Shown here piece after piece: positions 7,621-31,652 of a DNA stretch of 32,000 nt. The notes beneath the pieces were generated by a model. It was given only the letters and a program-made list of their open reading frames with translations. It was not told where the DNA came from and did not search any database. The translations under genes were made by a program, and so were the position numbers. How positions within the stretch are numbered: the first letter of the stretch is position 1; each line of letters begins with the position of its first letter. Source of the stretch: Candidatus Lokiarchaeum ossiferum (GTDB lineage: Archaea; Asgardarchaeota; Lokiarchaeia; Sigyniarchaeales; Promethearchaeaceae); the NCBI GenBank assembly GCA_025839675.1, contig CP104013.1, positions 630,001 to 662,000 of the forward strand. The letters are read 5' to 3'.

Positions 7621-8352
7621 TCATACTTTTTTATTTTCTACTAATGAATATCTATAGAGATCCTTTCCAAGAAAAATATACCAGCCGAAATAAAATATGC
7701 CTGCTACGATCATAATGTAGCTACTTAAAGTAGGTGTGAAAAGATGCAGTAAATGTTGAATTAAATCAAGGCCGTTTGCCAAAATTCCTAAAATGATAGT
7801 CGAATTTGAAAACAATTCATTCTTGTGCATTCTAATATGAAATAATAGAAATCCACCTTGCAGGAAAATTCCTGATACTAACCAAGCAGTCCCATTCCAT
7901 TCATTCATTGCAAGAACAGCTTCCCCTGCGGCAATATATTTACTTCTGATCATATCGTCAACAGTATTGTTGTACTTATCACTCAAATCTATTAATGATA
8001 ATGCCCCGTTATTTGTTACGGCTATTACAACTCCCATTAGAATAAGTATTAATAGGAAAAGTGATATTGCGGGGTCTTTTTTTTTCATAACTGCATATAT
8101 ACCAAATGATACTGGTGCCATTAGTAATATGATAATCAAGCTTTGAAAATCTAATCGTAAAATTGCCTCAAATCTATTGGTTTCTAACATTTCAAAGACT
8201 TCTTCAATAGTTTCAGGAAGGATTCCAACAACTATTGCAAAAATCATAATGAATATCGCACATAATAGCTGAGAATATACTGAGATTGAAGCAATTTTAC
8301 AAGTAATCTTCCAATCTTCATCAACAATCTGGGAATTGGTATTAGAACTCAT
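7621..8352 (-). CDS. polytopic membrane protein, unknown function
   Basis: 243-aa ORF with about 6 hydrophobic helices. It has clean intergenic flanks on both sides. No catalytic motif recognised. Confidence 0.6.
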   Translation of the reverse strand: MSSNTNSQIVDEDWKITCKIASISVYSQLLCAIFIMIFAIVVGILPETIEEVFEMLETNRFEAILRLDFQSLIIILLMAPVSFGIYAVMKKKDPAISLFLLILILMGVVIAVTNNGALSLIDLSDKYNNTVDDMIRSKYIAAGEAVLAMNEWNGTAWLVSGIFLQGGFLLFHIRMHKNELFSNSTIILGILANGLDLIQHLLHLFTPTLSSYIMIVAGIFYFGWYIFLGKDLYRYSLVENKKV

Positions 8353-9572: not shown

Positions 9573-10211
9573 TTATTTTTCGGAAATAGACAAAAGAGAG
9601 AACTGCTTGGATATTATATAGTTTGCTTCCGAACGAAATTTACTAACTATTTTATGTTCACGTTCTAAAACTTTCATCCGAAAATCATCGTAAATTTCCT
9701 TCCCTCTCATGCTCTGAGCTTTTTTTGTCTCATGATAAGTTAAATCAATATAAATATTAAAATCACCGGTAAAATGTAGAGAATACAATCCTTCCAAAAT
9801 TAATACAGAAATACCGCTAAAATCTGTAATAAGTGTATCTACGCGATCATTAATTAAATCGACACATGGTAAATTCCCAACTTTATCTGATTTAAAATCT
9901 AAAATATTTTTTATAATTAAATCCCAATCATATTCCGTAAAATTAATTGCAGAAATTCCTTCCTTTTTCCTCCATTCTAATCGATTATTAGGAGGAATTC
10001 GATAGTAGTTATCGGTGTGGAGAATTTTTGTAAGAATTCCTTCTTTCTTTAAATATCTACCTACCATGTGAGCGACTTCACTCTTTCCAGAACCAGATTC
10101 TCCACCGATTGTGATAATTAATTTTTCCCTTCTTGTTTTAAGATATTTTTGAACTATCTCATGGGCAACATTTTTATGTTTTTCCTCGATTAGTAGAACA
10201 TCACCTAACAT
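9573..10211 (-). CDS. uridine kinase / phosphoribulokinase-family P-loop kinase
   Basis: P-loop GGESGSGKSEVA, then LHTDNYY, NFTEYDWDLI...LDFKSDK, LPCVDL...DRVDT, VLILEGLYSL and IYIDLTYHETKKAQSMRGK follow the Udk/PRK family order. Candidate starts at 10211 or 10232 both overlap the upstream GH65 stop codon (10201-10203). Confidence 0.75.
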   Translation of the reverse strand: MLGDVLLIEEKHKNVAHEIVQKYLKTRREKLIITIGGESGSGKSEVAHMVGRYLKKEGILTKILHTDNYYRIPPNNRLEWRKKEGISAINFTEYDWDLIIKNILDFKSDKVGNLPCVDLINDRVDTLITDFSGISVLILEGLYSLHFTGDFNIYIDLTYHETKKAQSMRGKEIYDDFRMKVLEREHKIVSKFRSEANYIISKQFSLLSISEK

Positions 10212-13200
10212 GTATTTCACTCCATTGTTCATTAATTAAAAAATATTCTTTACCCCTAACTCGGATTGCTTGTTCTATTACTGAGTCACTTGAAAATTTA
10301 ATTCTGACATTTAAATTTGAGAGTTCGAAGGAATAACGACAACCTTTCAAGTTGAATGAAAAATTCAAGCATCGCCAATGTGCAGGTAATCGAGGGTCAA
10401 TTTCTAAAAAATCCGAGAACAAATTCACACCTGCATAACCAAACAATATCATACAATAAGAACCACCCATAACTCCAGTATGAATTCCTTCTCCAGTTGT
10501 TCCATTCTGAATATCAGAATAATCACATGATAGTGTTTTTAAAAAAAAATCGAATGATTCTTTATATCGTCCCAGCAGATTTAAAACATGAGAATGTACT
10601 AGATAACTTAAGGTAGAACCATGTGATGTTCTTTTGTAATAATAGTCAAAATTTGTTTCCAAAAACACATTCGGAATTCTATAGCCATTATTAGATAAGA
10701 TAGATTCAACTTCACATTTGGGTAACATATAAAAGATCATAAGTAAATCCGCTTGTTTGATAGCTTGAAAACTATTGACATCCAAATTTTCAGATTTGAG
10801 AATTCGGTCAAGTCGATTAATGCATTCATATTTTTTCCGATATTCATCCAAATTTAGTTCTACTAGATTTAAAAATCCTTCAAACTGAGAAATTATCCCA
10901 TCGTCAGTAATTTCAATAAAAAGGTTTGTGCTAATTCTATCCCAAAGGTTCAATTCTTTTTCAGTTAATCCTATAGATTTGAATAATGATAATTTATCCA
11001 ATTTCGGCAATTCTGATAAAATTAAGAGAGTTTTCTTCAAAAGCCAAGAAACCAATATATTGGTATAAGAATTGTTATTGATTCCACGATCTGGCTTATC
11101 AGGATAATGTTCATGGAATTCATCTGGACCCATTACATCCTTTATAGAATATCGTCCAGTTTTTGAACTTAAATGTGAGATTGATGCCCAAAATCTACAT
11201 ATTTCTAATATAGTAATCAAACCTTTTTCAAAGAAAAATTGATAGTCCTTAGATACATGGAAATAATTCAAAATGTTATAAGCAATTGATAAATTCACAT
11301 GACGTTGTTTAATACTATGGTCTTCGCTCCAAATACCTGTCAATGGATTTAAGTGCATCTTTTGTGTTTCTTCTCTGCCATCTAAACCACTTTGCCATGG
11401 ATATAATGCCCCACTATACCCTTGTTCTTTTGCATTTTTTCTTGCTTGATCTAATCTATCAGTTCGGTAAATAAGGATGCTTTGTGCGATTTCTGGATAA
11501 TGAAGATTATAAAATGGAAAAAAAAATAATTCATCCCAAAAGAAATGTCCACGATAGGATTCACCATGTAATCCACGAGCAGGAATACTAAGATTTGACT
11601 CTACACTGAGAGGAGAACCACTTATTATAAGGTGATATAAATTAATTCGAATTAATTTCTGTACATATCGATCACCTACTATTTTGACATCAACTTTATT
11701 CCAAATTTTTTTCCATTCTTCATAGCTACTCTTAGCAATATCATCAAAAGCATCAATTTTTGATAGTTTGGAAGTAGAATCGTCAATTTTTTTTTGAATT
11801 TCATTTTTATTATAAAATTTACAAATATATACAATTTTTTCCAAGCTGATTGAATCATATTGGCTAATATTTTCGGATAAGGTTGCCTTAACACAAGTTT
11901 TTTCTTTAGTTAAACCAATTAATGGGAAACATTTATCTTCATTTTTTGATAGCATAATTTTTGCTGAAACTAAAATGTGAATATTTGATTGAATTGTTGA
12001 AGACACATTCGAGATAATATCACCCTTGGAATATAGAAATACTGTCTTCAAATGCTTTGAATTCAAACCGTTATATCGCTTTACACCCTTATTTTCAATA
12101 GAACTATCAATAGAAGTTTGAAATGTAATTTTGCCAGAATAATTCAAAGAAGTAATTCCATATTGAATTGCCCCATAATTAGGATTTTTCATGCTAATAA
12201 TACGTTTAGAAACAATTTTAGTTCTATTTTTATTCAAATCTTCAACAACGATAAATCGATTTAGCACACCTCTTTTTAAATTCAAGGAGCGTTTAAATTG
12301 TAGAATTTTCCAAGAAGTAGGATCGAACCATTCACCAGAATTTATCTTAAATTTAAGGGGAAGCCAATTTGGACAATTTACTAAGTCTAAATTTGATATT
12401 ATTTTATTTTTAACATTAGATTCAGTTCGGTTATATACTCCTGCAATATAGGTTCCAGGATAATTATTTATTGTTGCGTTTACCTCTTCAAAAGTGCCAC
12501 GAGTGCAGATTACACCATTTCCAATTGTACAAAGGGATTCTCTCATCATTTCTAGTTCAGGAGCATAGTGATTATATTCAATTTTCCATTGAGATTCATT
12601 TAATTCAAAACTAAACCAATTTTTAATTCTTTCAAATGAAATATCTCGTAGATCTTCTACTACAATATCTGCACCATTTATTTTCAATTCATTTTGATTA
12701 TTTTCACGGGCAACACCAATTATTAGACCAAAATTACCATCTCTTCCTGCTTGAACTCCTGATATTGCATCTTCAACTATTACGGTAAGATCATATGGAA
12801 CTCCAAGATTGTCTGCAGCCTTGTGGAAAATGTCTGGTTGAGGTTTTCCTCTCAACTCTAATTTTTGTAAGGAATTTCCATCAACAATAGTCTCAAATAG
12901 CTGGATAATTCCAACCGATTCTAAAACTAATCGACAATTTTTACTCGAGGAAGCAACACCCAACTTAATGGATTTTTTCTTTAAATCTTTAATTATTTCC
13001 AAGGATGATGTAAAAACTTCTACTCCTTGTGTTTTAATTAAATTTTCTAGTATCTGGTTTTTTTTATTACCTAATCCACAAATTGATATCACATCGGGTG
13101 AATCGTCTTGACTTCCATATTCGAGACTAATATTTCGAGATAGAAGAAAGGATTCTACTCCTTTATAACGAGGTTTCCCATCTACATATAGTAAATAATC

Positions 13201-13362
13201 ACTCTCATGGGTAAATTCTTTAAAATTTTCACCTAATAAGTTAGAACGTTGTTTTAGATAACTATTAAACATGTTCTTCCAAGCCAAACTATGAAGCTGG
13301 GCGGTGTTTGTTATTACACCATCCAAATCAAAAATTACTGCCTTGCAAATCATTATGTTCAT
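10201..13362 (-). CDS. fusion protein: N-terminal beta-phosphoglucomutase (HAD) + glycoside hydrolase family 65 disaccharide phosphorylase
   Basis: HAD motifs are present: IFDLDGVITNT (DxDG), GVASSS, GKPQPDIF, VEDAISGVQAG. The GH65 catalytic-region pattern GLHGESYRGHFFWDELFFFP and the later TGEGIHTGVMGGSY follow. 1053 aa. Confidence 0.9.
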   Translation of the reverse strand: MNIMICKAVIFDLDGVITNTAQLHSLAWKNMFNSYLKQRSNLLGENFKEFTHESDYLLYVDGKPRYKGVESFLLSRNISLEYGSQDDSPDVISICGLGNKKNQILENLIKTQGVEVFTSSLEIIKDLKKKSIKLGVASSSKNCRLVLESVGIIQLFETIVDGNSLQKLELRGKPQPDIFHKAADNLGVPYDLTVIVEDAISGVQAGRDGNFGLIIGVARENNQNELKINGADIVVEDLRDISFERIKNWFSFELNESQWKIEYNHYAPELEMMRESLCTIGNGVICTRGTFEEVNATINNYPGTYIAGVYNRTESNVKNKIISNLDLVNCPNWLPLKFKINSGEWFDPTSWKILQFKRSLNLKRGVLNRFIVVEDLNKNRTKIVSKRIISMKNPNYGAIQYGITSLNYSGKITFQTSIDSSIENKGVKRYNGLNSKHLKTVFLYSKGDIISNVSSTIQSNIHILVSAKIMLSKNEDKCFPLIGLTKEKTCVKATLSENISQYDSISLEKIVYICKFYNKNEIQKKIDDSTSKLSKIDAFDDIAKSSYEEWKKIWNKVDVKIVGDRYVQKLIRINLYHLIISGSPLSVESNLSIPARGLHGESYRGHFFWDELFFFPFYNLHYPEIAQSILIYRTDRLDQARKNAKEQGYSGALYPWQSGLDGREETQKMHLNPLTGIWSEDHSIKQRHVNLSIAYNILNYFHVSKDYQFFFEKGLITILEICRFWASISHLSSKTGRYSIKDVMGPDEFHEHYPDKPDRGINNNSYTNILVSWLLKKTLLILSELPKLDKLSLFKSIGLTEKELNLWDRISTNLFIEITDDGIISQFEGFLNLVELNLDEYRKKYECINRLDRILKSENLDVNSFQAIKQADLLMIFYMLPKCEVESILSNNGYRIPNVFLETNFDYYYKRTSHGSTLSYLVHSHVLNLLGRYKESFDFFLKTLSCDYSDIQNGTTGEGIHTGVMGGSYCMILFGYAGVNLFSDFLEIDPRLPAHWRCLNFSFNLKGCRYSFELSNLNVRIKFSSDSVIEQAIRVRGKEYFLINEQWSEIHVR

Positions 13363-13396: not shown

Positions 13397-14515
13397 TTAA
13401 AGTTGTTGAATCGGATTTTTATGTATTAGATTTAATTCCGATTTTGCATCAAATACATGAATTTTCTCATTTGGGAAACTCACATATGCATGATCTCCCA
13501 TTTTTGCACTATAAAACCCATTAGCGACAGCTAAAGATGCAAATTTGCCTTTAAACTCGAACTCTATTATTGTATTCGCACCTAAATATTCAACCACATC
13601 TATTTTGACCTTAAAAGCATCTTGTCGTTTGTCTGGAGTAATTTGAATATGTTCTGGTCTTATTCCTAGTATCAAATCTGTCGAATTGGCAGTTTTAATT
13701 TTTTCTACAATACTTGAATTAATTGAATATTGATTCTGCCCAAAAACGAGATTGGAACCTTGCAATTCACATCTCATGAAATTCATAGATGGAGCGCCAA
13801 TGAATCCTGCAACAAATATATTTCGAGGAGTATTATATACTTCAGATGGAGTTCCTACTTGTTGTATATACCCCCCATTCAAAATGGTTATCCTATCAGC
13901 CATGGACATGGCTTCAACTTGATCATGAGTTACATAAATCAAGGTAGTTTGAAGCTGCTTTTGAAGTTTGATAATTTCACCACGCATTTGAGTTCGAAGT
14001 TTTGCATCTAAATTACTTAATGGTTCATCAAAAAGAAAAACTGTTGGATCTCTTACAATACACCTTCCTAATGCAACTCTTTGCCTTTGACCACCACTTA
14101 ATTCTTTCGGTTTTCGATCTAATAAAGATTCAATCTCCAAAATTTTTGCAGCTTTCACGACATTTCGATTGATGATTTCTTTATCCACTTTTGCAAGCTT
14201 CAAAGCAAAACTCATATTTTCGCGAACATTCATATGAGGATAAAGCGCATAGCTCTGAAATACCATAGCAAGGTTTCGTTCCTTTGGAGGTAACTCAGAA
14301 ACATCTACATCACCAAAAAAAATATTTCCATCAGTTACATATTCAAGCCCAGCAATAATATTTAGACACGTAGATTTTCCACAACCAGATGGACCAACAA
14401 GAACCATAAATTCTTTATCTCTTATAGTCAAATCTATTCCTTTTAGTACATGAACATCTGGCTTAAATATCTTATTTACTTTTTTCAATTCTATATTTAC
14501 CATTTTTTTCACCAA
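13397..14515 (-). CDS. sugar ABC transporter ATP-binding protein (MalK/UgpC type with C-terminal regulatory/TOBE-like domain)
   Basis: Walker A GPSGCGKST, LSGGQRQRVALGRCIV, Walker B VFLFDEPLSNLD, H-loop YVTHDQ. The 372-aa length is typical of MalK-like ATPases. Confidence 0.9.
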   Translation of the reverse strand: MVKKMVNIELKKVNKIFKPDVHVLKGIDLTIRDKEFMVLVGPSGCGKSTCLNIIAGLEYVTDGNIFFGDVDVSELPPKERNLAMVFQSYALYPHMNVRENMSFALKLAKVDKEIINRNVVKAAKILEIESLLDRKPKELSGGQRQRVALGRCIVRDPTVFLFDEPLSNLDAKLRTQMRGEIIKLQKQLQTTLIYVTHDQVEAMSMADRITILNGGYIQQVGTPSEVYNTPRNIFVAGFIGAPSMNFMRCELQGSNLVFGQNQYSINSSIVEKIKTANSTDLILGIRPEHIQITPDKRQDAFKVKIDVVEYLGANTIIEFEFKGKFASLAVANGFYSAKMGDHAYVSFPNEKIHVFDAKSELNLIHKNPIQQL

Positions 14516-14522
14516 TTTTTAA

Positions 14523-16625
14523 TTATCCTTTTACCGCTCCACTAGTAATTCCTTTGATAATGTGTTTTTGAAAAATTAGAACAATAATGACCAGCGGTAC
14601 TGTAGCAATCGAAGTTGCAGCCATTAAGGCAATATCAGTATCCCAATTTGCAGACAAACTTGCAGGGTTTTGAACAAAACGCAAAATTGCCCGAGGAATT
14701 GTATGATTATCATCCGATATTAACCAGATTTGAGCAAACAATAGTTCATTCCAAGCAGCAATGAAAACTAAAATAAAACATGTAAATAAACCTGGAACTG
14801 TTAAGGGCATTATCACTTTTCGAAATACTTGAAAATTTGAAGCACCATCAACACGTGCTGCTTTCCATAAATCTTCTGGAATCTCCTCAAAGAAAGATCT
14901 CAAAACAAAAGTTGCGAGTGGAAGATTGAATGCAGCATATGGTAAAATTAACCCAAAAAGACTATCTGTTAGATCCAGAAATGGAAATATGTTTGAAATG
15001 ACTTTTGTTTGAATAAAATATGGAATAATGATTACTAAAGGTGGCAAACTAGTCATTGTAAAGATAATCAGCGATGTTATTTTTTTAAATTTGAAGTCAA
15101 ATTTCGCTAATGCATAGCCAGTTAAAGAACCTACAATTAAAACAACTAGGGCAGTTAAACCAGATAAAATAAATCCATTAATTAGCGCTCTATCAAAGGT
15201 TGCTCCAAAAAATTCTGAATTTTGAAATACTACCTTGAATGCATCTATGGATGGAAATTTGGGCAGAATTTCAAAACTATCTTGAGCAATGTATGGATTA
15301 CGAAAAGCTCTTAAAACAATCCAAATAAATGGGAAAGCACAGAATAGACACATTAAAAATACAGAGATAACTAATCCTATCTTTTTAATTACACGTTTTC
15401 TTCGAAACCATTGAATTTCTTTATTTGAAATTTTCCTCAAAAGAAATGTTGTCTTATCACCATCATGGATTGAGTTCTCATTATCGTCGTTATTATTTTC
15501 ATTATTATCCAGAATTTCATCAGTGAGAGAAGGTCCTTCTTTGGATTTTCTCATTAGAGAAATCGAAGATAATTTGGTTTTGGGAGATTTTGAGGTTCGA
15601 TCTACAGACAATATCTTAAAAATGAAAACCGCGAATATAATAATGATAAGAAATTCTAACATTGCAACTGTGGAGGCCTTTCCAAATTCTTGAGATCTAG
15701 ACCAAAAATTTACTGATTGATATGTCATTGAATATACAGTATCATCCCTAAATATTACAATCGCATCATATACACGAATTGCATCCATAACACGAAATAC
15801 TAATGCAGTAGCAACACCAGGTCTAATAATTGGCCAAGTAATCTTTGAAAATTTTTGCCAAGGAGTTGCTCCAGCGATATCTGCAGCACCATATAAATCT
15901 TCAGAAACAACCTGTAAGGCAGCTAGAATTAGTAAACTGAAGAATGGAGTAGTCTTCCATACATCAATTAGAATTGAAGATAACATTGTTGTTGAAATGG
16001 GTACCATCATGAATCCAGGAGAAAATGGAATCAAACATGGTAAATCAAATAGAATTGATACATCAGCACCAAAAAAAGCAATTCCATTTCCACCTAATCC
16101 TTGAATTAAAGAATTAAACAAACCATAATCACCTGATGGTGCAAGTATTTCATATCGAAAAATAGTTGCTGAAGCAACAGTTGGCAACGCCCATGGTATT
16201 AAAAGTGTTGCTCTAGCTAAGCCTCGACCTTTAAACTCTTTATTCAATAGTAAAGCAAAAATTAAACCAAGTAATAATTCTAAAGTCACAGCAACGATCG
16301 CAAAGAAAAGTGTTTGGTAGGTATATTGCCAAAAATGATTGGCATTTATCCCTCCATGAAATAATAATTCATAATAATTAATTAAAGTGATTTTATCACC
16401 GAAAAAACCATTTGAAGCAGAACTATTTGTAAAACTAATCAAAATACCTATTATTAGTGGGAAGAAAATTCCAAAAAGAAAAACTAATACCGCTGGAATT
16501 AATATCTTATATGCAAATCTTTTTTCTGATTTATTAAGTTCCTTCTTATTTTTCTTACCCAGCGATAAATTTTCATCTGGATTCGGTCTTGATACTGTGT
16601 TATATATTTTTTTAGATTCTTCCAT
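14523..16625 (-). CDS. fused double permease of a carbohydrate (CUT1-type) ABC importer (MalF-like + MalG-like halves in one polypeptide)
   Basis: Two EAA-loop motifs are present: AADIAGATPWQKFSKITWPIIRPG and AARVDGASNFQVFRKVIMPLTVPG. They are separated by a low-complexity acidic linker (LDNNENNNDDNENSIHDGDK). 700 aa. Confidence 0.85.
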   Translation of the reverse strand: MEESKKIYNTVSRPNPDENLSLGKKNKKELNKSEKRFAYKILIPAVLVFLFGIFFPLIIGILISFTNSSASNGFFGDKITLINYYELLFHGGINANHFWQYTYQTLFFAIVAVTLELLLGLIFALLLNKEFKGRGLARATLLIPWALPTVASATIFRYEILAPSGDYGLFNSLIQGLGGNGIAFFGADVSILFDLPCLIPFSPGFMMVPISTTMLSSILIDVWKTTPFFSLLILAALQVVSEDLYGAADIAGATPWQKFSKITWPIIRPGVATALVFRVMDAIRVYDAIVIFRDDTVYSMTYQSVNFWSRSQEFGKASTVAMLEFLIIIIFAVFIFKILSVDRTSKSPKTKLSSISLMRKSKEGPSLTDEILDNNENNNDDNENSIHDGDKTTFLLRKISNKEIQWFRRKRVIKKIGLVISVFLMCLFCAFPFIWIVLRAFRNPYIAQDSFEILPKFPSIDAFKVVFQNSEFFGATFDRALINGFILSGLTALVVLIVGSLTGYALAKFDFKFKKITSLIIFTMTSLPPLVIIIPYFIQTKVISNIFPFLDLTDSLFGLILPYAAFNLPLATFVLRSFFEEIPEDLWKAARVDGASNFQVFRKVIMPLTVPGLFTCFILVFIAAWNELLFAQIWLISDDNHTIPRAILRFVQNPASLSANWDTDIALMAATSIATVPLVIIVLIFQKHIIKGITSGAVKG

Positions 16626-16668
16626 TATTTCACCCTGTTCGATTCAATAAAAAAAAAGTGTAAAAATT

Positions 16669-18120
16669 TTAAGTTCGTCTCTTTCTAACTAAAATAATAC
16701 TTACGGTTAGACTCAAAGCAACAACTAAAAAGCCTATAGAATAACCCGGAATACCATTTCCAGGAATTTCTATTTTACCACTGATTATTTCAGTAATTGC
16801 AGATTCCATCTTTCCTAGACCTTCATTAACTGATTTTACACCACCTAATATATCATTAAAATAATCCGCAATTTCTACTGAAAAAGTAGCATATTTAGGA
16901 TGTACAGGTCGAGCAAGTGTACGTTCAGCAGCGGATTCGAATTCTGCTACCCACTCATATCCAGCAGGTAAGTTATCAAAAGCAGATTTCAATGCAGGAA
17001 AATTAGAGCATTCAGTCAATTCGGCAAGTTGAGCAACTTCATCGCCTAAGAATCGTATTAAATTCATAGCTTCAGTTTTTTGAGTTCCACTCGTTGGAAT
17101 GGCTAAAACAGCACCACCCACTACAGCCGATTTTTCAGAATCTCCACCTGTTTTAGTTGGCATTGCAGTTACGCCAAACTGGACATAATTACCAGAACCA
17201 TCTGTAGCATTAAGTCCTGCTTCAGCTTTTGAATTTCCATAAGCAAATGGCCATTGTCGCATAAAAATAGCTTCTCCAGCCGTCCATTTTCCAACAGAAG
17301 AACCTTCATCATGAGTTAACCCTTCTCGAGGAACAATGTAATCTGTACCTTGAACACCAGTATATCTAGGAGCGATCAAACCATTCAAAAATGTCATGGC
17401 AGATTGAACATCTGTGTTATTCAAATCAACTTCTCCATCTGAATCAAATATACTTGTTTGACCAGCACTCCCCATCCATTCAATGAAATTACAAACCCCA
17501 CCTTCATATGCATCAAATTGTCCGACGAAGCCAACTAAATCGGGATCTAAGGCTTGTTCTGTTGCGTTTGCAAGAATTGTATTTGCTGCGGCTTTGAATT
17601 CATCCCAAGTATCGAAATCATCTACAGAATCGTATCCATTTCTAGCTAAAATATCTGCTCGATAGAAAAGTACACCTAAATTCAAGAAGTATGGATATGC
17701 ATATGCCTTGCCATTATACATGCTAGAATCGACCATCCCGCTAAAATAATCATCAAATTCCCCTGATTCAAGAGTAAGCTCATCAATCCACCCATTTTCA
17801 GCAAATTGAGCTGTCCAAACCGTATCAAGCCCAACAACATCGAATTCAGAACTCCCTGCAGCCATCTGAGTCGTAAGATAAACAAGCTGATCGTCAGCAC
17901 GGGTTCCAGAAGAAATAACTTCGACTGCATCCACGCCGGTTCCAAGTGTATCAGCCAAAAATTCATCAATAACAGCTTCCACTCCTGGTGCTTGTTGGTC
18001 TGTTACTATGATTTTTAAAGTTACACCTTGAGCTTTAACAGGCTGAATTATTCCCAAGCCGAGAGTAAAAACCATCATACCTAAAAGAGTAATAGATACA
18101 AATCCATTTTTTGTTTTCAT
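16669..18120 (-). CDS. extracellular sugar-binding protein (ABC family-1 SBP) with N-terminal signal/anchor and C-terminal PGF-CTERM-like anchor
   Basis: The ATG at 18120 gives MKTKNGFVSITLLGMMVFTLGLGIIQPVKAQG, which is signal-like; the track start at 18177 adds 19 aa. The body is SBP-like (..YAYPYFLNLGVLFYRADIL.., ..GGAVLAIP..). The C-terminus is PGYSIGFLVVALSLTVSIILVRKRRT. Confidence 0.85.
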   Translation of the reverse strand: MKTKNGFVSITLLGMMVFTLGLGIIQPVKAQGVTLKIIVTDQQAPGVEAVIDEFLADTLGTGVDAVEVISSGTRADDQLVYLTTQMAAGSSEFDVVGLDTVWTAQFAENGWIDELTLESGEFDDYFSGMVDSSMYNGKAYAYPYFLNLGVLFYRADILARNGYDSVDDFDTWDEFKAAANTILANATEQALDPDLVGFVGQFDAYEGGVCNFIEWMGSAGQTSIFDSDGEVDLNNTDVQSAMTFLNGLIAPRYTGVQGTDYIVPREGLTHDEGSSVGKWTAGEAIFMRQWPFAYGNSKAEAGLNATDGSGNYVQFGVTAMPTKTGGDSEKSAVVGGAVLAIPTSGTQKTEAMNLIRFLGDEVAQLAELTECSNFPALKSAFDNLPAGYEWVAEFESAAERTLARPVHPKYATFSVEIADYFNDILGGVKSVNEGLGKMESAITEIISGKIEIPGNGIPGYSIGFLVVALSLTVSIILVRKRRT

Positions 18121-18533
18121 TTTATCACTACCTACATTTTTGTACCAATTACAAATTTCTTGTCGTATTTTATACATACATCATTATTACTACATATCTG
18201 AAAGTTTTGACAAGCAAAATTTATACTGGCAATAATATTCTATCAGATTAGTATATAAACATTCGTATTTGGCTGCCACAGAATTGTACTGGAAATACTA
18301 ATACTGTAATGGGTTAAGGTGGACACATATGTTTTTTATTTCAAAATATGATAGATTTTTATTAAAAATATGTCTCAATAAATGGATAAAAACTTCTCAA
18401 AATAAGAAAAACTGTAAGAAATTTAACATCAGATTTTTTTCTGAAGATCAATCTCATTAATTTTTTAAAAAATCGAAAAGCATTAATAAAAATAATTCAA
18501 GAATTAAAAAAAAAAAAAATATGTTATTCAGAA

Positions 18534-22731: not shown

Positions 22732-23271
22732 ATGCCAGCCCATAAATTATTTTTATTTGGACTTGATAAAGCCGGAAAAACAACCTTATCGCATTTTATT
22801 AAAGAGGCAAAGGAAATTCAACCCCGTCCAACACTTGCGTTCAATTTGGATAAATGGATCATCAAGGATTTGGAATTTCAAATTTGGGATGCTCCAGGAC
22901 AAGTATCCCTTCGTTATGTCTGGAAAAATGGATTTAATCGGGCAAAAATATTAATGTTCGTTTTAGATTGTTCACATCCAGAACGGTTTGAAGAGGCTTT
23001 CACTGAATTTAATCAAGTTATCATGAATGCTGACACACGGGGAATCCCCTTAGTGTTCTGCTTCCATAAGTGGGATATTGACTTAGCTCAAGCAAGCTAT
23101 AATGATGCCAGAGCAGTTTTTAAACTTCCTCTTATCACTGATCGACCGGTATTTTCATATAGAACAACAGTGAAAAATTTAGAAACATCAAAAATTCCAA
23201 GTAATGAGGATATTGGTGGTTTAAAGTTAAAACTTGTAGAATTAATTCAATCAGAACGATGGGGCACCTAA
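22732..23271 (+). CDS. Arf/Sar/SRbeta-like small GTPase (divergent G3/G4)
   Basis: G1 is GLDKAGKTT (the Arf-type GLDxAGKT). G2 region is PRPTLAFN. G3 is WDAPGQ. G4 is HKWD in place of NKxD. 179 aa with no Gly2 or N-terminal amphipathic helix. Confidence 0.85.
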   Translation: MPAHKLFLFGLDKAGKTTLSHFIKEAKEIQPRPTLAFNLDKWIIKDLEFQIWDAPGQVSLRYVWKNGFNRAKILMFVLDCSHPERFEEAFTEFNQVIMNADTRGIPLVFCFHKWDIDLAQASYNDARAVFKLPLITDRPVFSYRTTVKNLETSKIPSNEDIGGLKLKLVELIQSERWGT

Positions 23272-23310
23272 TAACTAAGAATAAATAAATAACAATGGAG
23301 AATATCAATC

Positions 23311-24276
23311 ATGCAAATAATCACTACAATCTATGAAACTAAACTTATAATCGCTGATTCACTCCCTGAATCAGAAATAACAGATAAAAAGAAAGCACTT
23401 ATTACAACACTATTCAAGAAAAACCTTGATGAAGTTAAAGCGAAACGATTGCTGATTAAAGAAGAACGAAATTCACTCAATTATTTGTTTTTGTTGCCTG
23501 CTCCTCAATCTCAAGAGGAAATCATTGTAATGTTAAGTATTTTTTTGGATGAACATGAAAACACGCTAGTATTCCAACCTATCATTATGAAATATGTTGA
23601 AAAAATTATTGCTACCCCAGAAATATATTCCGGTGTTTATTTTACACAAAATAATGATAACGTTTATTATAAAGAATGCGCACATCGTCTCCACACCTTG
23701 TTGGAACACTGTCATGATGAAATTCTGAAAAAAGAAAAAAAATCTCAAGTTGGTTTGGCTAATATTATTTTCTTTGGAATTCAAGCAGTTGGGAAAACTT
23801 CTATAATTAAACACTTGATTAATGGCCAATTTATCCAAACTCGTCCAACACTCGCACCTCAAATTTTAAAACTCTATTTTGAGCAGGTTGATTTTCGAGT
23901 TTTTGATGTAGGAGGACAAAAAAATCTTCGAAAACTGTGGACAACCAAATTGCAAAGACCCCAAGCAATAATTTATGTCCTTGATTGTTCTCATGATATA
24001 GAAGCCCTCAATGATTCTGTATTTGAATTTAATCGTATAATGAAACACTATTTTATAGAACATATAGATGCTGATAAGCTAAGAAAGATCCCTGTTTTAA
24101 TTTTGGCCAATAAAAAAGACATCAATCCAGATCTTACAATAGAAAATATCATAAATGACTACAATATATCAGCGTATGATATTAATTACCGCGTGAATCT
24201 TTGCTCTGCTCTTACAGGGGATGGATTGATTGAGAGTTTTCAATGGTTGACAAAAACAATCAAAATTTCAAAATAA
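23311..24276 (+). CDS. Arf-like small GTPase with about 150-aa N-terminal longin-like extension
   Basis: The C-terminal half has G1 GIQAVGKTS, G2 TRPTLAPQ, G3 FDVGGQKNLRKLW (Arf WDVGGQ..R.LW pattern), G4 NKKD and G5 CSALTGDGL. The N-terminal half has a beta-beta-alpha-beta-beta-beta-alpha residue pattern. Confidence 0.85.
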   Translation: MQIITTIYETKLIIADSLPESEITDKKKALITTLFKKNLDEVKAKRLLIKEERNSLNYLFLLPAPQSQEEIIVMLSIFLDEHENTLVFQPIIMKYVEKIIATPEIYSGVYFTQNNDNVYYKECAHRLHTLLEHCHDEILKKEKKSQVGLANIIFFGIQAVGKTSIIKHLINGQFIQTRPTLAPQILKLYFEQVDFRVFDVGGQKNLRKLWTTKLQRPQAIIYVLDCSHDIEALNDSVFEFNRIMKHYFIEHIDADKLRKIPVLILANKKDINPDLTIENIINDYNISAYDINYRVNLCSALTGDGLIESFQWLTKTIKISK

Positions 24277-27084: not shown

Positions 27085-28011
27085 ATGCAAAATCATGCTT
27101 ATTCTTCAAATCAATTTAATTCAAATATATTTTTTGAATTTGGTAATTCAATGAAAAATTACGTCAAAGCATCCGTTATCGTAGCAATCATTGGCATTAT
27201 TGGTTCATTTATTATCCCATTTTTAGGAATTATTCCAATGTTGTATGGATCAGGTTCTTCAGGTCCGTATCAAACGATGGGAGGGATGATGCTAATTTCG
27301 AGTCTTTTTGGACTTGCTTCACTTGGATTATCTATTTTTGTTTTGGTAAGGTATATTCAATATTTATCGGCTCTTAAAAGAATTGGACAGACCTTAAATG
27401 ATTTCAATCTGCAAAAAGCCTATAAAATGGAAATTGGGACAATAATTGGTTCGATTATTTTTCCAATTATTCTCATTGCAACATTCGTTCCAGTTATTAT
27501 TTCCATGGTTAATGATCCCTATGAAGCTATGATCACGGGATTTTTAGGTTTGATTCTACTCGCCTTGTTGGGAGGCACAATAATATTCGTGCTATCAATC
27601 CTTGGAGTGATTGCTCTTGATCGATGGGGGGAACAATTCCGATATAATAATAATTTAATAGGGATTAATATTGCAGAAGGAATAAATTATATGAAGTGGG
27701 GAAGAATAATTGCACCATTCACAGGCGGTATTGGGTCAATATTTTATCTTGTCGGAATGTGGAAAGCAGGAACGAATTTAATGATTTATAAAGCAGGAGA
27801 AAATCAACCTGGAACATTCCAACCCAGTATGCCATCCTATCAGAGATCCTCCGAAACAAATTTCGACAGTTTTTCAGAGCAAACATATCGCCCAGATTCT
27901 ACATTAGGAGGAAACACCATAATTCCGTCCGGTTTTTGTTCGAAATGTGGACAAAAAATTCTCAATCTAAATTCTACTTTTTGTGAGAATTGTGGAAATA
28001 AACTCAAGTAA
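27085..28011 (+). CDS. polytopic membrane protein with C-terminal double-CxxC zinc ribbon (paralog 1)
   Basis: About 6 hydrophobic helices. Conserved blocks VRYIQYLSALKRIGQTLNDFNLQKAYKMEIG and MKWGRIIAPFTGGIGSIFYLVGMWKAGTNL. The C-terminus is CSKCGQK...FCENCGNKL. Confidence 0.7.
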   Translation: MQNHAYSSNQFNSNIFFEFGNSMKNYVKASVIVAIIGIIGSFIIPFLGIIPMLYGSGSSGPYQTMGGMMLISSLFGLASLGLSIFVLVRYIQYLSALKRIGQTLNDFNLQKAYKMEIGTIIGSIIFPIILIATFVPVIISMVNDPYEAMITGFLGLILLALLGGTIIFVLSILGVIALDRWGEQFRYNNNLIGINIAEGINYMKWGRIIAPFTGGIGSIFYLVGMWKAGTNLMIYKAGENQPGTFQPSMPSYQRSSETNFDSFSEQTYRPDSTLGGNTIIPSGFCSKCGQKILNLNSTFCENCGNKLK

Positions 28012-28096
28012 AGTTTTAGCCATAAAACACTCTTTTTTCTCTTTAAATTACCTATGAAAAAGATTTTTTAGGGTGTACCCCTATATTTTCCTTGCT

Positions 28097-29005
28097 ATGG
28101 AAAATCCCTATGCACCTTCAAATAGACACATTTCTGAACTTTATTTCAACCTAGGACAAGCGATGAAGCAATATGTAATCGCCATATTAGCTAGCTGTGG
28201 AATAGGAATAATTGGGCTTTTTTTAACAATATCTATGGGTCCTTACGTAACTTCAGAAGTTTATGCCCTATCAGGAAGTGCGGGGATGCAAATAGTCACA
28301 TTGGCAGCAATACCGGGAATTTTCAGCTTTTTGTGGATTGGTTTATTTACTTATATTGCAGTACGGTATTTTCAGTATCTTTCAAAATTAAAGGCCTTGG
28401 GAAATCAACTAGGCGATGTAAATTTACAAAAAACATATAAAATGGAAATCGGAGCCATAACATCAGGGATATTCTTGGTGATATTTGTTATTATCATTCT
28501 TATGCCAATCTCTCGATCACTATTATATAATCCAGCGAGATTCAATGTCTCAGGACTAATTGGTCTAATATTTTTGATTTTTTTTGGTGGAATTGCGGTT
28601 TATATATTCCAGATAATGAGCGTAGTGCATTTTGATAGATGGAGTTATTATCTTCAAATTTCTGATCCTAATATTACAACCTATTCAATTAAAGAAGGAA
28701 TGGGATTCATGAAATTTGGTAGAATACTTAATCCCTTTGTAAGCGGAATTGGAGAAATCTTTTATATGGTGGGAATGTGGAAATCCGGACAAAATTTGAT
28801 TAAATATTCAGGCATGAATAATACCAGAGTAGAGAATCCATCTATTTATGGCCAATTTTCCGAACCACATACACGAACCTATCGACCACTTCAAATGCAT
28901 CCAACACCAAGTCGACCACAGCATTTCTTTTGTTCAAATTGTGGAAACAAAATTACCCCTCCAGAATCCAAGTTTTGCCAAAATTGTGGGAATAAATTAT
29001 TCTGA
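28097..29005 (+). CDS. polytopic membrane protein with C-terminal double-CxxC zinc ribbon (paralog 2)
   Basis: The ATG at 28097 (MENPYAPSN) aligns with the paralog 1 N-terminus (MQNHAYSSN); the track start at 28073 is a GTG. Blocks VRYFQYLSKLKALGNQLGDVNLQKTYKMEIG and MKFGRILNPFVSGIGEIFYMVGMWKSGQNL are shared. The C-terminus is CSNCGNK...FCQNCGNKL. Confidence 0.7.
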   Translation: MENPYAPSNRHISELYFNLGQAMKQYVIAILASCGIGIIGLFLTISMGPYVTSEVYALSGSAGMQIVTLAAIPGIFSFLWIGLFTYIAVRYFQYLSKLKALGNQLGDVNLQKTYKMEIGAITSGIFLVIFVIIILMPISRSLLYNPARFNVSGLIGLIFLIFFGGIAVYIFQIMSVVHFDRWSYYLQISDPNITTYSIKEGMGFMKFGRILNPFVSGIGEIFYMVGMWKSGQNLIKYSGMNNTRVENPSIYGQFSEPHTRTYRPLQMHPTPSRPQHFFCSNCGNKITPPESKFCQNCGNKLF

Positions 29006-29296: not shown

Positions 29297-30418
29297 TCAC
29301 TCAAATTTATGCCTGAATTCGTTAAATTTTTTCAAAACTTGGAGAAAAATTTCATCCTTGAAAGATAGAGATTTCTTAAATTGAATAATCGGGTTCAAAA
29401 ATTCTTGAAAGGAATTTGATTCCTTAGGGTTTAATAGAAAAATGACAGTATACTCGTTAATATTGAAAATTAAATAAATATTTTTTGAAGAAATGAGAAT
29501 TATTCCGAAAAGTGGTTCTTTGTAGATATTTTCCATTATTGTATGAGATGTATTGTATAATGTGAGTGCATTGGCAATGGAATCTTCAGAACTTAGATTA
29601 TTTGCCGAATCTTTCTTAACTCTCACATTACCAGAATTATCCACAAGAACAAATGGATTTTCAATCTCAAAAAGTAATTTTCCAGGAGATTTAAGTATTT
29701 TTTGAACTTTTTTAGGTTTCAATTTTTGATTAAGCGCAATATTTGAATCATTTTCGAGAGTTTCATAAACGATAGTAATATCCTCATAATTTTTATATTC
29801 GAGCACGCGGAAATCAGAAGAAATAAGTGTCACCATATCAAGTTTCTCGGTCAACCTTTCTTCCACAATTCGATTTACGGCTTTTATTAGTACCATCGTT
29901 TGAAATCCCAGAATTTTTTTATCAAAGTATTCTTTTGCTTTACTATAAAGAACTTCACCATCAATATTGCTCAAATACAAGACACTGCGAATGTTATCCT
30001 CCTCATCATAGTTTTTTAAAATATTAATATAGTCAAAATAACCGTGAGATTTCAAAATACTATCTACATTCTTATGAAATGGATTAAAAGTACCAACATC
30101 GCCATTAAAATTGGTCACTTTCTCCAAAAATAAATCTAAAAACGTATCTCTGATTTGAATCAGGATTTTTCGGATTATTTTTTCAAATTCTTTATCCTTT
30201 GTTAAAATAACAAAAATTAAATCCTTATATCGATCAAAGATGTAAGTGGTTAAATTTAAAGTAATTTCTTCAATAACTTCCCCGCTTTGCCCTTTGGCAA
30301 ACATATTTAAGGCTGTGAGAAAACCAGAGATCAAATTTGCATCCGAATCATCATCATCACTTGTCCATGTGAAGTAACTAATTCCCGCATCATTCATAAC
30401 CAAAATTCGATCAATCAT
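29297..30418 (-). CDS. protein built of three tandem longin/roadblock-like modules (tentative)
   Basis: The 373-aa soluble ORF shows a threefold repetition of a beta-beta-alpha-beta-beta-beta(-alpha) residue pattern. The first module starts MIDRILVMNDAGISYFTW...ANLISGFLTALNMFAKG. Details are in the findings. Confidence 0.65.
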   Translation of the reverse strand: MIDRILVMNDAGISYFTWTSDDDDSDANLISGFLTALNMFAKGQSGEVIEEITLNLTTYIFDRYKDLIFVILTKDKEFEKIIRKILIQIRDTFLDLFLEKVTNFNGDVGTFNPFHKNVDSILKSHGYFDYINILKNYDEEDNIRSVLYLSNIDGEVLYSKAKEYFDKKILGFQTMVLIKAVNRIVEERLTEKLDMVTLISSDFRVLEYKNYEDITIVYETLENDSNIALNQKLKPKKVQKILKSPGKLLFEIENPFVLVDNSGNVRVKKDSANNLSSEDSIANALTLYNTSHTIMENIYKEPLFGIILISSKNIYLIFNINEYTVIFLLNPKESNSFQEFLNPIIQFKKSLSFKDEIFLQVLKKFNEFRHKFE

Positions 30419-30611
30419 TTCTCAATTTAAGTTGATTTACCAAGATAAAAAGTTTGTTGCTTTCAATTAATATGATTTGTTTGAGTTTCCATTATCAATT
30501 TTAGCTTTTATAATATTAATCATAGTTTGCAATTTCAAATCAAGATCCAAGTGAAAAGATTTTTTACATGAATAAGTGAATATTATTGAAAGAAATACGG
30601 ATTTGAAAAAC

Positions 30612-31652
30612 ATGGGTTTATGGGTAGAATTATTAATTGTTCAAACAATTATTGGGTATTGCTTTGTTATGGCAAACGATTTGATAGGACTTTATAATAT
30701 TAGAGATTTAAACAATATGAAGGGTGATATCACATTGGTAAAGGCACACAAGAGAATAGGCTGGATTGAAACAACCTTTTTCTATTGTATAACGATCCAA
30801 TGTCTAATAATGGTTTTTATGGCTTTAGGAGGATCAGGCACACCTCCTTTTTTATCTATTGGAAATACAAGTGGTATTCATTTTATGATAGGTGGTATAG
30901 TAGGAACGATACTTTTTTCGTTTAAATTTATTATCGCACATTTTAAAAAGAATATCATCTATAAATATGGTCAGTTCATCGGACCAATAGGGTTTGTGGG
31001 ATGGAGTTTAGCACATTGGACAAGCATGGTAAATTATTTCTTTTTTTATTCTGGAGAAACCATTTTTTTACCAAAGACTGCTTTTTCCTTCATAATTGCA
31101 GCCTTGATCTCATTTTCGATTGGAACAGCAATATTTTTAGGTGTTCTTGCTAGAAGAGGAGGAAGCACTACAAACAGTCGGTGGTCCGTCCATCAAATTG
31201 CATTCATTCTACATGGAATTACTTTTGGTTATGAAGGTGCGGCTAAAGATTTGTTAGGAACCCCAGCTTTATATAAATACGTCATACCGAAGACATATGG
31301 CTTTTTAGAGAAGATGTTGAAGGATGTTTTAGGTTTTGACCTGAAAGAATTAGAAGAGATGAATTTGAATAAAGCTTTAGAAGCTTTTACAAAAAAATCC
31401 GCCGAAATTGGTATGGCAGAAAAATTGAAGATTAAATGGGAATCCGATCATGTTTTTACCATCGAATCAGTAAATTGTTCCACCGCAAAGGTTCGAAGTG
31501 TTATGAAACCCGAGGAATTAACCAATGCAATCTGTCCATGGGCAATAATGGCTGCTGCGATAGTCAATAAAAGCACAGGAAAAGATCTTGAAATCGCTGC
31601 ATCAGAATTTAATGAAATCGGATCTTTAACTAAAGTTACTCTAAAAGAATAG
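30612..31652 (+). CDS. polytopic membrane protein with C-terminal soluble V4R-like domain (tentative)
   Basis: About 6 hydrophobic helices are followed by a about 150-aa soluble tail ending ...IESVNCSTAKVRSVMKPEELTNAICPWAIMAAAIVNKSTGKDLEI... The Cys spacing and G-rich end are reminiscent of V4R/4-vinyl-reductase-type ligand-binding domains. An alternative GTG start is at 30576. Confidence 0.6.
   Translation: MGLWVELLIVQTIIGYCFVMANDLIGLYNIRDLNNMKGDITLVKAHKRIGWIETTFFYCITIQCLIMVFMALGGSGTPPFLSIGNTSGIHFMIGGIVGTILFSFKFIIAHFKKNIIYKYGQFIGPIGFVGWSLAHWTSMVNYFFFYSGETIFLPKTAFSFIIAALISFSIGTAIFLGVLARRGGSTTNSRWSVHQIAFILHGITFGYEGAAKDLLGTPALYKYVIPKTYGFLEKMLKDVLGFDLKELEEMNLNKALEAFTKKSAEIGMAEKLKIKWESDHVFTIESVNCSTAKVRSVMKPEELTNAICPWAIMAAAIVNKSTGKDLEIAASEFNEIGSLTKVTLKE

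Follow-up and report, generated by a model that had tools for sequence, protein, structure and literature searches.

We identified in Candidatus Lokiarchaeum ossiferum a gene whose 373-amino-acid product is predicted to consist of three consecutive longin domains and is an Asgard homologue of eukaryotic tri-longin-domain (TLD) proteins. The gene [29297..30418, minus strand, an open reading frame (ORF) with an ATG start] lies in a window of 32,000 nucleotides, positions 630,001 to 662,000 of the forward strand of contig CP104013.1. Its conserved neighbor is a divergently transcribed gene encoding a membrane protein (30576..31652, plus strand), which had been missed in an earlier reading of the window made from the letters alone (here called the sequence-only reading). 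The three-longin layout is otherwise known only from the eukaryotic Rab guanine nucleotide exchange factor (GEF) subunits Mon1, Ccz1, Fuzzy, Inturned, HPS1, and HPS4. New here are a prokaryotic tri-longin protein that is encoded by a single gene and partnered with a membrane protein, and this conserved membrane partner itself. The best explanation, to which we assign as a whole a probability of about 0.5, is that the protein is an Asgard TLD protein acting as a membrane-coupled longin platform which regulates a small GTPase encoded elsewhere. The observations behind it are the predicted fold, the homology of the first longin domain (LD1), the match in architecture, the gene pairing and the focus of conservation on helix α1 of LD1.

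Full-length homologues in Asgard archaea

The ORF stands as the sequence-only reading had described it, and its translation contains the peptides quoted there. A "hypothetical protein" recorded for Ca. Lokiarchaeum ossiferum matches it with 100% identity, so that the genome, which had been judged archaeal-looking, is that of an Asgard archaeon. A search of 5.8 billion clusters returned 13 full-length homologues (366-388 amino acids, 29-82% identity). A search of 1.84 billion representatives with the family profile gave 986 matches at E ≤ 1e-3, about 35 of which are full-length (roughly 340-400 amino acids), while the remaining matches are mostly single-domain proteins of 120-180 amino acids that align to module 1 only. 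Because full-length homologues were found in both searches, the gene is, judged by its sequence relatives, real and under selection. The window is AT-rich (GC content 0.28-0.37).

Full-length members are present in metagenome-assembled genomes (MAGs) named Promethearchaeota/Lokiarchaeota, Thorarchaeota, Hodarchaeota, Hermodarchaeota, Ranarchaeia, Kariarchaeaceae, and Heimdallarchaeaceae. The protein is also encoded in the closed genome of Ca. Heimdallarchaeum endolithica and is present in both cultured species, L. ossiferum and MK-D1. The occurrence in Hodarchaeales and Heimdallarchaeaceae besides Loki and Thor lineages suggests that the family is old within the Asgards. The UniRef name of the Heimdallarchaeum homologue is "FUZ/MON1/HPS1 first Longin domain-containing protein", and the LD1 match is therefore already visible in automatic annotation. 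NCBIfam gave no match for the tri-longin protein or for its membrane partner, and a sequence search of the PDB with the tri-longin protein and the family profile returned nothing even at E ≤ 10. The suggestion that this is not a described family was upheld by full-text literature searches, which found no paper on an archaeal tri-longin protein, a Mon1-like protein or the gene pair; subscription-only papers were outside their scope and may hold an earlier description of an archaeal tri-longin protein.

Two groups of relatives were observed besides the family proper (loci are cited by our own locus numbers, with positions counted within each locus). A single-longin protein of 165 amino acids carries the helix motif GFLTALN(M/L)F as in LD1 of the tri-longin protein (L007-L011, approximately 7845-8339 or equivalent). 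It is conserved in Promethearchaeota, Hodarchaeota, and Odinarchaeota MAGs, and the tri-longin protein may have been assembled from a single-domain relative such as this one. Heimdallarchaeaceae contain a distant tri-longin subfamily of 355 amino acids (L015, 3850-7068; L016, 858-4090). Its gene overlaps the end of an upstream gene encoding 317 amino acids by 7 nt, which in turn is preceded by a gene for a multi-transmembrane/TPR-like protein of 398 amino acids, in an operon-like arrangement. About 5 kb downstream of this tri-longin gene a CCDC47-like protein (weak match) and an Arf/Ras GTPase are encoded.

Predicted structure of the three modules

An AlphaFold2 model of the tri-longin protein was built from the 13-sequence alignment, and secondary structure elements were assigned by DSSP. 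The model [mean predicted local distance difference test score (pLDDT) 84.3, predicted template modeling score (pTM) 0.83] contains three modules of the order β-β-α-β-β-β. Every strand and helix named in the sequence-only reading, which had proposed three tandem longin-like modules, coincides with a DSSP element. Module 1 or LD1 (amino acids 2-102; 30113..30415, minus strand; ββαβββα), assigned by DSSP and by Pfam family PF19036, is composed of strands 2-9 and 14-19, helix 27-41, strands 51-54, 57-64, and 67-73, and helix 76-102. Module 2 (amino acids 143-221; 29756..29992, minus strand; ββαβββ by DSSP) is of longin/roadblock type, with strands 143-150 and 156-161, helix 167-188 and strands 193-200, 204-210, and 214-221; linker helices precede it (amino acids 108-139) and follow it (amino acids 235-251). 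Module 3 (amino acids 256-370; 29309..29653, minus strand; ββαβββ followed by two helices by DSSP) is a longin with strands 256-259 and 265-269, helix 278-298, strands 303-310, 314-320, and 323-328, and helices 331-345 and 356-370. In the model, modules 1 and 3 show the complete longin order β-β-α-β-β-β-α(-α), and module 2, with helices on both flanks, is readable as a longin or as a roadblock (αββαβββ). Pfam returned no domain for module 2. In Foldseek searches the model also matched single-longin chains (AP sigma/mu N-termini and zeta-COP) with target-normalized template modeling scores (TM-scores) of 0.5-0.63.

Profile comparison of the modules with each other (hhalign) aligned modules 2 and 3 in register over 72 columns (probability 64%, E 6.5e-5) and modules 1 and 3 with a probability of 24% (E 8e-4), and detected no similarity between modules 1 and 2. 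Module 3 showed weak in-register similarity to Mon1 LD1 (E 2e-3). Since the internal profile similarity is weak, the triple repeat rests more on the predicted structure than on the sequence, and from the model we consider a three-longin fold very likely. The Pfam roadblock family Robl_LC7 (PF03259) matched neither the tri-longin protein nor any homologue examined; one family member (P0037) carries a COG-style annotation of the Joint Genome Institute (JGI) as a Roadblock/LC7/MglB-type regulator.

Relation to eukaryotic tri-longin RabGEF subunits

Amino acids 5-86 of LD1 fall within Pfam family PF19036 (Fuz_longin_1, "First Longin domain of FUZ, MON1 and HPS1") with 35 bits, the gathering cut-off being 26.1 (E 2e-8). 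This family is matched by 12 of the 13 homologues (best E 2e-10), and the generic Longin family by two only. For profile comparison, a family alignment of 38 sequences was set against a Mon1 alignment of human, 12 other vertebrate, Drosophila, and C. thermophilum sequences; the sequences of human MON1A and Fuzzy were verified to be identical to PDB chains. LD1 aligned with the Mon1 profile over 83 columns (hhalign probability 85-94.5%, E 6e-6 to 8e-8). On this profile evidence, the homology of the first domain to the first longin domain of FUZ/MON1/HPS1 can be regarded as established.

The likeness to tri-longin RabGEFs which the sequence-only reading had proposed was borne out over the whole chain by a Foldseek comparison of the model with the PDB, in which ranks 1-18 were taken by TLD RabGEF chains only (Mon1/Ccz1/Fuzzy/Inturned/BLOC-3). 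These matches (E 9e-10 to 1e-4, probability 0.99-1.00) are collinear over the whole length and comprise 406-481 aligned columns. Mon1 ranks first (E 9e-10); ranks 1-7 (9l0d_A, 9lol_B, 8c7g_C, 9rs7_A, 8jbe_C, 7qla_A, and 9rs6_A) proved to be Mon1 when checked by sequence, as 7q3d_C, 7q3e_C, and 9rs8_A proved to be Fuzzy, and the other matched chains of the same entries are Ccz1, Inturned, HPS1, and HPS4 by elimination and entry title. Full-length Mon1 of C. thermophilum was matched at E 1e-7 to 7e-9, far better than its LD1-only crystal chain 5ldd_A (E 4.7e-3), indicating that more than LD1 contributes to the Mon1 match; single longins (AP sigma/mu, zeta-COP) reached E values of about 5e-4 or worse. 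No FLCN, SMCR8, NPRL, or DENN chain was among the Foldseek top 50, which argues against the class of longin GTPase-activating proteins (GAPs).

Several results weigh against descent of the whole chain from a common ancestor with the eukaryotic proteins. No family member matched the Pfam families PF19037 and PF19038 at E ≤ 1. The per-module profile comparison linked LD1 to Mon1 LD1 but did not extend to the other domains: modules 2, 3, and 2+3 reached hhalign probabilities of at most 0.2% against Mon1 LD2+3, a similarity at the level of the fold only, although this negative is not a strong one because the Mon1 profile is shallow (vertebrates, fly and one fungus). Foldseek TM-scores to the TLD chains are 0.22-0.28 with a root-mean-square deviation of about 22 Å, and about one domain superposes at a time. 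Given this poor superposition of whole chains, the predicted arrangement of the three domains differs from that in solved TLD subunits, which could be genuine or arise because a dimerizing protein was modeled as a monomer. Among ten Asgard single-domain longins related to module 1, two pass the PF19036 threshold and two more match weakly, so the LD1 signal belongs to a broader Asgard longin clade. Finally, no second, Ccz1-like paralogue adjoins the gene; each locus examined has one tri-longin gene. Taking both sides into account, we consider shared ancestry of the whole three-domain architecture with the eukaryotic TLD proteins likely.

Compared in this way, the Asgard protein and the eukaryotic TLD subunits share three longin-type domains per chain, a similar size (373 amino acids versus a core of about 400) and an LD1 of the same Pfam family, and the Mon1/Fuzzy side matches the Asgard protein better than the Ccz1/Inturned side. 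They differ in LD2 and LD3, which have no detectable sequence homology with Asgard modules 2 and 3, and in their domain arrangement (TM-score about 0.27). The Asgard protein lacks the disordered N-terminal region, PDZ domain and accessory subunits of the TLD systems, and its conserved partner is an integral membrane protein where TLD partners are Rab5, phosphatidylinositol 3-phosphate (PI3P) or RMC1. Eukaryotic TLD RabGEFs are heterodimers of paralogous subunits with a catalytic LD1-LD1 site (PMC12383261), and LD2 and LD3 form the scaffold of the hexa-longin Mon1-Ccz1 core (PMC12383261; PMC6864590). With a single tri-longin gene per locus examined, a homodimer rather than a heterodimer would be expected for the Asgard protein. 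The longin GAPs FLCN-FNIP, GATOR1 NPRL2/3, and C9orf72-SMCR8, for which Asgard longin homologues have been reported (PMC12290439), also act with longins on Arf or Rag GTPases, but have a longin + DENN architecture unlike that of the Asgard protein. The eukaryotic TLD subunits have been inferred to derive from one tri-longin progenitor (PMC6864590), and the evolution of BLOC and Mon1 has been traced back to before the last eukaryotic common ancestor only (PMC11513930); prokaryotes are unmentioned in the two papers that define the TLD proteins, one of which is PMC6864590.

Conservation is focused on helix α1 of LD1

The most conserved segment of the protein comprises amino acids 27-47 (30278..30340, minus strand), that is, helix α1 of LD1 and the loop that follows (L-I-S-G-F-L-T-A-L-N-M-F-A...G-E). 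Residues S31, G32, F33, T35, A36, N38, F40, A41, and G46 of this segment were listed as invariant, and conservation in the 38-sequence alignment is 90% or higher at each of S31, G32, F33, A36, F40, A41, G46, and E47. The mean frequency of the top residue is 0.77 for amino acids 27-41, compared with 0.42 in the corresponding helix of LD2 and 0.35 in that of LD3. The pLDDT reaches its minimum in the same stretch (54-59 for amino acids 21-50, and <50 at amino acids 41-46), which would fit an element that needs a partner. In longin/roadblock dimers α1 and β3 form the dimer interface, and GTPases bind the single-helix face in MglB, TRAPP, and related platforms (PMC3747258).

A conserved membrane protein is encoded next to the tri-longin gene

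The neighboring gene (30576..31652, plus strand; 358 amino acids as listed) encodes a protein with five transmembrane segments and a C-terminal domain. Homologues align from residue 13-15 onward; as they begin at M13, translation probably starts at the ATG at 30612 and not at the listed GTG (30576). The divergent, AT-rich intergenic region (30419..30575) measures 157 nt, or 193 nt with the latter start. In a six-frame scan with hidden Markov models (HMMs), the two genes were adjacent in nine of ten assessable loci from at least four named Asgard lineages (Loki, Thor, Hod, and Hermod); the locus without the pair is L019, and L017, which is cut at a contig end, was not counted as assessable. In the closest homologous locus (L001) the membrane protein is 88% identical and divergent to the tri-longin gene, whereas in a Prometheoarchaeum-like contig (L004) and in MK-D1 (L005) it is 64% identical and the genes are convergent and 15 nt apart. 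The pair is co-directional in L006 and also in L012 (Thorarchaeota), L013 (Hodarchaeota), and L014, the last three having the longin gene upstream and gaps of 92-180 nt, and it is again divergent in a Hermodarchaeota contig (L018). It thus occurs in all three orientations, and since the other flanking genes vary between loci, it stands out from background synteny. Matching contigs and locus tags suggest further tri-longin/membrane pairs. On the other side, the distant Heimdallarchaeaceae subfamily has no Bet3-like membrane partner within 6 kb. The contig with one of the co-directional pairs (L006, WJJB01000404.1) is labelled Candidatus Bathyarchaeota Bin_245 and encodes an MIT-domain protein besides the Asgard-type pair, which implies a misclassified or contaminated bin or else an occurrence of the pair beyond the Asgards.

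The membrane protein family comprises 176 clusters (50-93% identity; Loki, Thor, Odin, Hod, and Hermod names). An alignment of 35 sequences contains approximately 70 invariant columns, a conservation far above that of the tri-longin protein. The protein is among the most conserved Asgard-specific proteins in this analysis, and its clusters are all annotated as hypothetical; some homologues carry the precomputed Pfam assignment PF27323. The AlphaFold2 model (pLDDT 82.2, pTM 0.77) shows five long helices (amino acids 3-196) followed by a soluble α/β domain. By the positive-inside rule the topology would be N-out and C-in, placing the soluble domain in the cytoplasm. Heme binding through the invariant residues H58 and H102 was considered and rejected, as the topology reading places them at opposite faces of the membrane.

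The C-terminal domain (amino acids 200-358; 31173..31649, plus strand) resembles Bet3(TRAPPC3)/V4R domains on fold-level evidence only, and its invariant residues include H213, E220, C301, C320, R307, and W322. Foldseek matched the membrane protein to Naegleria TRAPPC3 (6aq3; E 0.0098, probability 1.0, target-normalized TM-score 0.55) and further to human TRAPPC6 (2bjn), to Bet3-family chains of yeast TRAPPII and to the crystal structure of a Thorarchaeota TRAPPC3 (7yh3). Against this assignment it counts that the TRAPP-family matches, with probabilities of 0.87-1.0 for most, have marginal E values of only 0.01-0.2; that V4R sensor domains of MopR/DmpR/PoxR and H-NOX domains matched equally well; and that the domain had no sequence-level match in Pfam, NCBIfam or the PDB, its C-terminal profile giving nothing in the PDB at E ≤ 10 and the full-length profile only noise matches to cytochrome oxidase subunit 2. 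We therefore hold the Bet3/V4R assignment, which comes from predicted structures, with moderate confidence.

In non-Loki lineages redox genes were observed near the pair, encoding glutaredoxins, ferredoxin-thioredoxin reductase beta (FeThRed_B), CCG/HdrB-like proteins, FMN reductase (FMN_red), 4Fe-4S proteins and cytochrome bd subunit I (L013, 1-4000 and 6100-11000; L017, 1300-5000; L014, 1-400; L019, 1000-2700 and 5500-6700). Those of L013 and L017 are not independent observations, because the two loci share synteny. Such neighbors might point to a membrane protein that functions in a redox context.

Two known systems invite comparison. In actinobacterial conservons, CvnA is a sensor kinase-like membrane protein, CvnB a roadblock protein and CvnD a GTPase, with CvnC as a further component. 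As in the Asgard pair, a membrane protein is genetically coupled to a roadblock/longin platform proposed to control a small GTPase; unlike it, the conservons encode the GTPase within the operon, have only one roadblock domain and rely on a sensor that resembles histidine kinases. The TRAPP core combines a longin platform (Bet5/Trs23/Trs20) with Bet3-family proteins, which may be compared with the conserved gene pair of a longin protein and a protein with a putative Bet3/V4R-like domain found here, and in TRAPP the C-terminus of Bet3 completes the GEF site on the longin dimer (PMC3747258). The Bet3-like domain here is, however, the predicted cytoplasmic tail of a protein with five transmembrane segments and has no sequence similarity to TRAPPC3 or V4R. 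Moreover, TRAPP longins are separate single-domain subunits of an octamer, whereas here three longins are predicted to be fused in one chain.

Small GTPases in the neighborhood

The sequence-only reading had placed the tri-longin gene near small GTPases. This holds for the window itself, in which two real Arf-family genes (22732..23271 and 23311..24276; Pfam Arf E 7.5e-28 and 6e-33) are located on the opposite strand at a distance of 5-7.7 kb, but not as a feature of the family. Among the homologous loci examined no GTPase gene is conserved near the tri-longin/membrane pair, a result that counts against a GTPase-regulating role. L001, which is 65% identical, and L004 have no Ras-superfamily GTPase recorded within about 10 kb, the only GTPase near the pair in L001 being a DRG-like TGS GTPase; for MK-D1 (L005) the comparison extends to three flanking ORFs. 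In L013 the pair has an Arf-like gene at a distance of 1.4 kb, and in L015 the tri-longin gene has an Arf/Ras gene at about 5 kb, but with 23% and 30% identity these are not orthologous to the GTPases of the window. The sequence-only reading had itself regarded the lack of a conserved association as speaking against its proposal. GTPase synteny is nevertheless a weak criterion, because in MK-D1 operons generally do not combine GTPase genes with those for roadblock, longin or TRAPPC3 proteins (PMC10933270). Loki genomes encode 74-109 small GTPases (PMC10933270; PMC4917890), so that chance proximity is expected; at approximately one per 50 kb we estimate that a GTPase would fall within ±8 kb in about one case out of four.

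The account of Tran et al. (2024) deals with single longins, roadblocks, TRAPPC3, and GTPase fusions and includes no tri-longin protein (PMC10933270). These Asgard proteins and MglB belong to the same fold superfamily as the tri-longin protein, and a role as GTPase platform is expected for all of them. Hundreds of Asgard single longins of 120-180 amino acids are related to its module 1; unlike these, it carries its three modules in one tandem array, belongs to a defined family of orthologues about 340-400 amino acids long and has a conserved membrane partner.

Between the Arf genes and the tri-longin gene the window contains an FtsX/ABC transporter pair, a small ORF and two tandem genes (27085-28011 and 28073-29005, plus strand) for paralogous multi-pass membrane proteins of 308 and 310 amino acids with a C-terminal zinc ribbon (CxxC...CxxC). 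The second Arf-family GTPase (23311-24276, plus strand; 321 amino acids) has an N-terminal extension of 150 amino acids with a longin/roadblock-like residue pattern (ββαβββ), which recalls the longin-Arf fusions reported for Lokiarchaeum; Pfam recognized only the Arf domain in this protein, and hhalign of the extension against the tri-longin modules found nothing. Further away, a gene for a protein of 1053 amino acids (10201-13362, minus strand) combines an N-terminal HAD-type hydrolase domain with a complete GH65 glycoside phosphorylase. It adjoins a sugar ABC transporter operon (13397-18177) and looks like ordinary carbohydrate metabolism, unrelated to the tri-longin gene.

Proposed mechanism and alternative explanations

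We propose that the tri-longin protein would dimerize through helix α1 and strand β3 of LD1 to give a homodimeric counterpart of the hexa-longin Mon1-Ccz1 core, with LD2 and LD3 supplying the scaffold as they do there. This platform would be held at the membrane by, or regulated through, a physical interaction with the cytoplasmic Bet3/V4R-like domain of the five-transmembrane partner. A small GTPase encoded elsewhere would bind the α1 face and have its nucleotide state changed, most likely by a platform of the exchange-factor type. Functional coupling of the two proteins appears probable, and we see even chances that the tri-longin protein has a GTPase client. GEF rather than GAP or scaffold action is put forward tentatively; it is favored because all best structural relatives are GEFs and because the Bet3 subunit completes the exchange site on the TRAPP longin dimer. 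More speculative still, and in our view doubtful, is that the pair is the surviving archaeal form of the single progenitor of Mon1-Ccz1, BLOC-3, and Fuzzy-Inturned, which would make it a homodimeric hexa-longin exchange factor tethered by a Bet3-like integral membrane protein.

The architecture itself might be convergent, an Asgard single longin having been triplicated independently, in which case the protein would be kin to the TLD subunits only by the longin fold and might still be a GTPase platform. We find this rather unlikely. The greater resemblance of modules 2 and 3 to each other and to module 1 than to Mon1 LD2/LD3, the hundreds of single-longin Asgard proteins that match module 1 (some also Fuz_longin_1) and the low global TM-scores to TLD structures would all fit such an origin. 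Yet Foldseek puts TLD chains first, with collinear full-length alignments that are 4-6 orders of magnitude better than the match to LD1 alone, the spread of the family over Hodarchaeales, Heimdallarchaeaceae, Loki, and Thor lineages suggests age within the Asgards, and a single tri-longin progenitor has already been inferred for the eukaryotic subunits (PMC6864590). A different objection concerns the client. The tri-longin protein may be the cytoplasmic regulatory or signal-transducing subunit of a membrane sensor, transporter or enzyme, in which the V4R/H-NOX-like domain would be the site for a small ligand or metal and the longins would act as PAS/GAF-like interaction or ligand modules, with no GTPase involved. 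Longins indeed fall within a wide PAS/GAF-like superfamily, and finding one is not in itself a sign of trafficking (PMC4917890). The sole conserved genomic partner is a membrane protein and not a GTPase; its C-terminal fold also matches ligand-binding V4R sensors and H-NOX; it is far more conserved than the longin protein, and its many invariant His, Cys, and Glu residues are what a ligand or metal site would show; and redox genes lie near the pair in several loci. We nonetheless judge this role unlikely, considering that throughout evolution small GTPases are interaction partners of dimeric longin/roadblock platforms (PMC3747258), that the best structural matches are GEF subunits and not sensors, that the conservation hotspot lies on the canonical GTPase-facing helix, and that Asgards have many orphan GTPases whose regulators are not operon-linked (PMC10933270).

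Even with a GTPase client, the platform could be of the MglB/Ragulator kind, GAP-assisting or purely scaffolding, and recruit GTPases to the membrane protein instead of exchanging their nucleotide. MglB facilitates GTP hydrolysis and Rag/Ragulator platforms scaffold (PMC3747258), the JGI annotation of P0037 points to this type, and module 2 is readable as a roadblock, since helix 127-139 precedes its strands. With Robl_LC7 matching no member of the family, all top structural matches being GEFs and FLCN/SMCR8/NPRL-type GAPs absent from the top 50, this possibility is, in our assessment, quite unlikely. A specific partnership of the protein with the two Arf-like GTPases at 22732..24276 is very improbable. 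Both are bona fide Arf-family members within 7.7 kb, but they are encoded on the other strand with five unrelated genes in between, L001 and L004 have no GTPase recorded within about 10 kb of the pair, the GTPases of other loci are not orthologous, and chance proximity is likely at the density estimated above. We retain the membrane-coupled longin platform with a GTPase encoded elsewhere as the best explanation.

Implications

The tri-longin RabGEFs Mon1-Ccz1, BLOC-3, and CPLANE control the identity of endosomes, lysosomes, lysosome-related organelles and cilia. A compact, single-gene Asgard version would give the inferred tri-longin progenitor of these complexes a concrete candidate, and because cultured organisms possess the protein, the origin of eukaryotic GTPase regulators becomes testable. 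Gene order gives little help in pairing Asgard GTPases with their regulators, because they are not in shared operons (PMC10933270); the defined two-protein bait described here is usable to fish for the client GTPase. The pairing with a Bet3/V4R-like membrane protein suggests a way in which a GTPase switch could have become anchored to the membrane before phosphoinositides, prenylation and Rab cascades. If the pair is indeed the surviving form of the progenitor of the eukaryotic complexes, the TLD and TRAPP longin GEFs would be linked to one ancestral membrane-bound complex that predates eukaryotic endomembranes.

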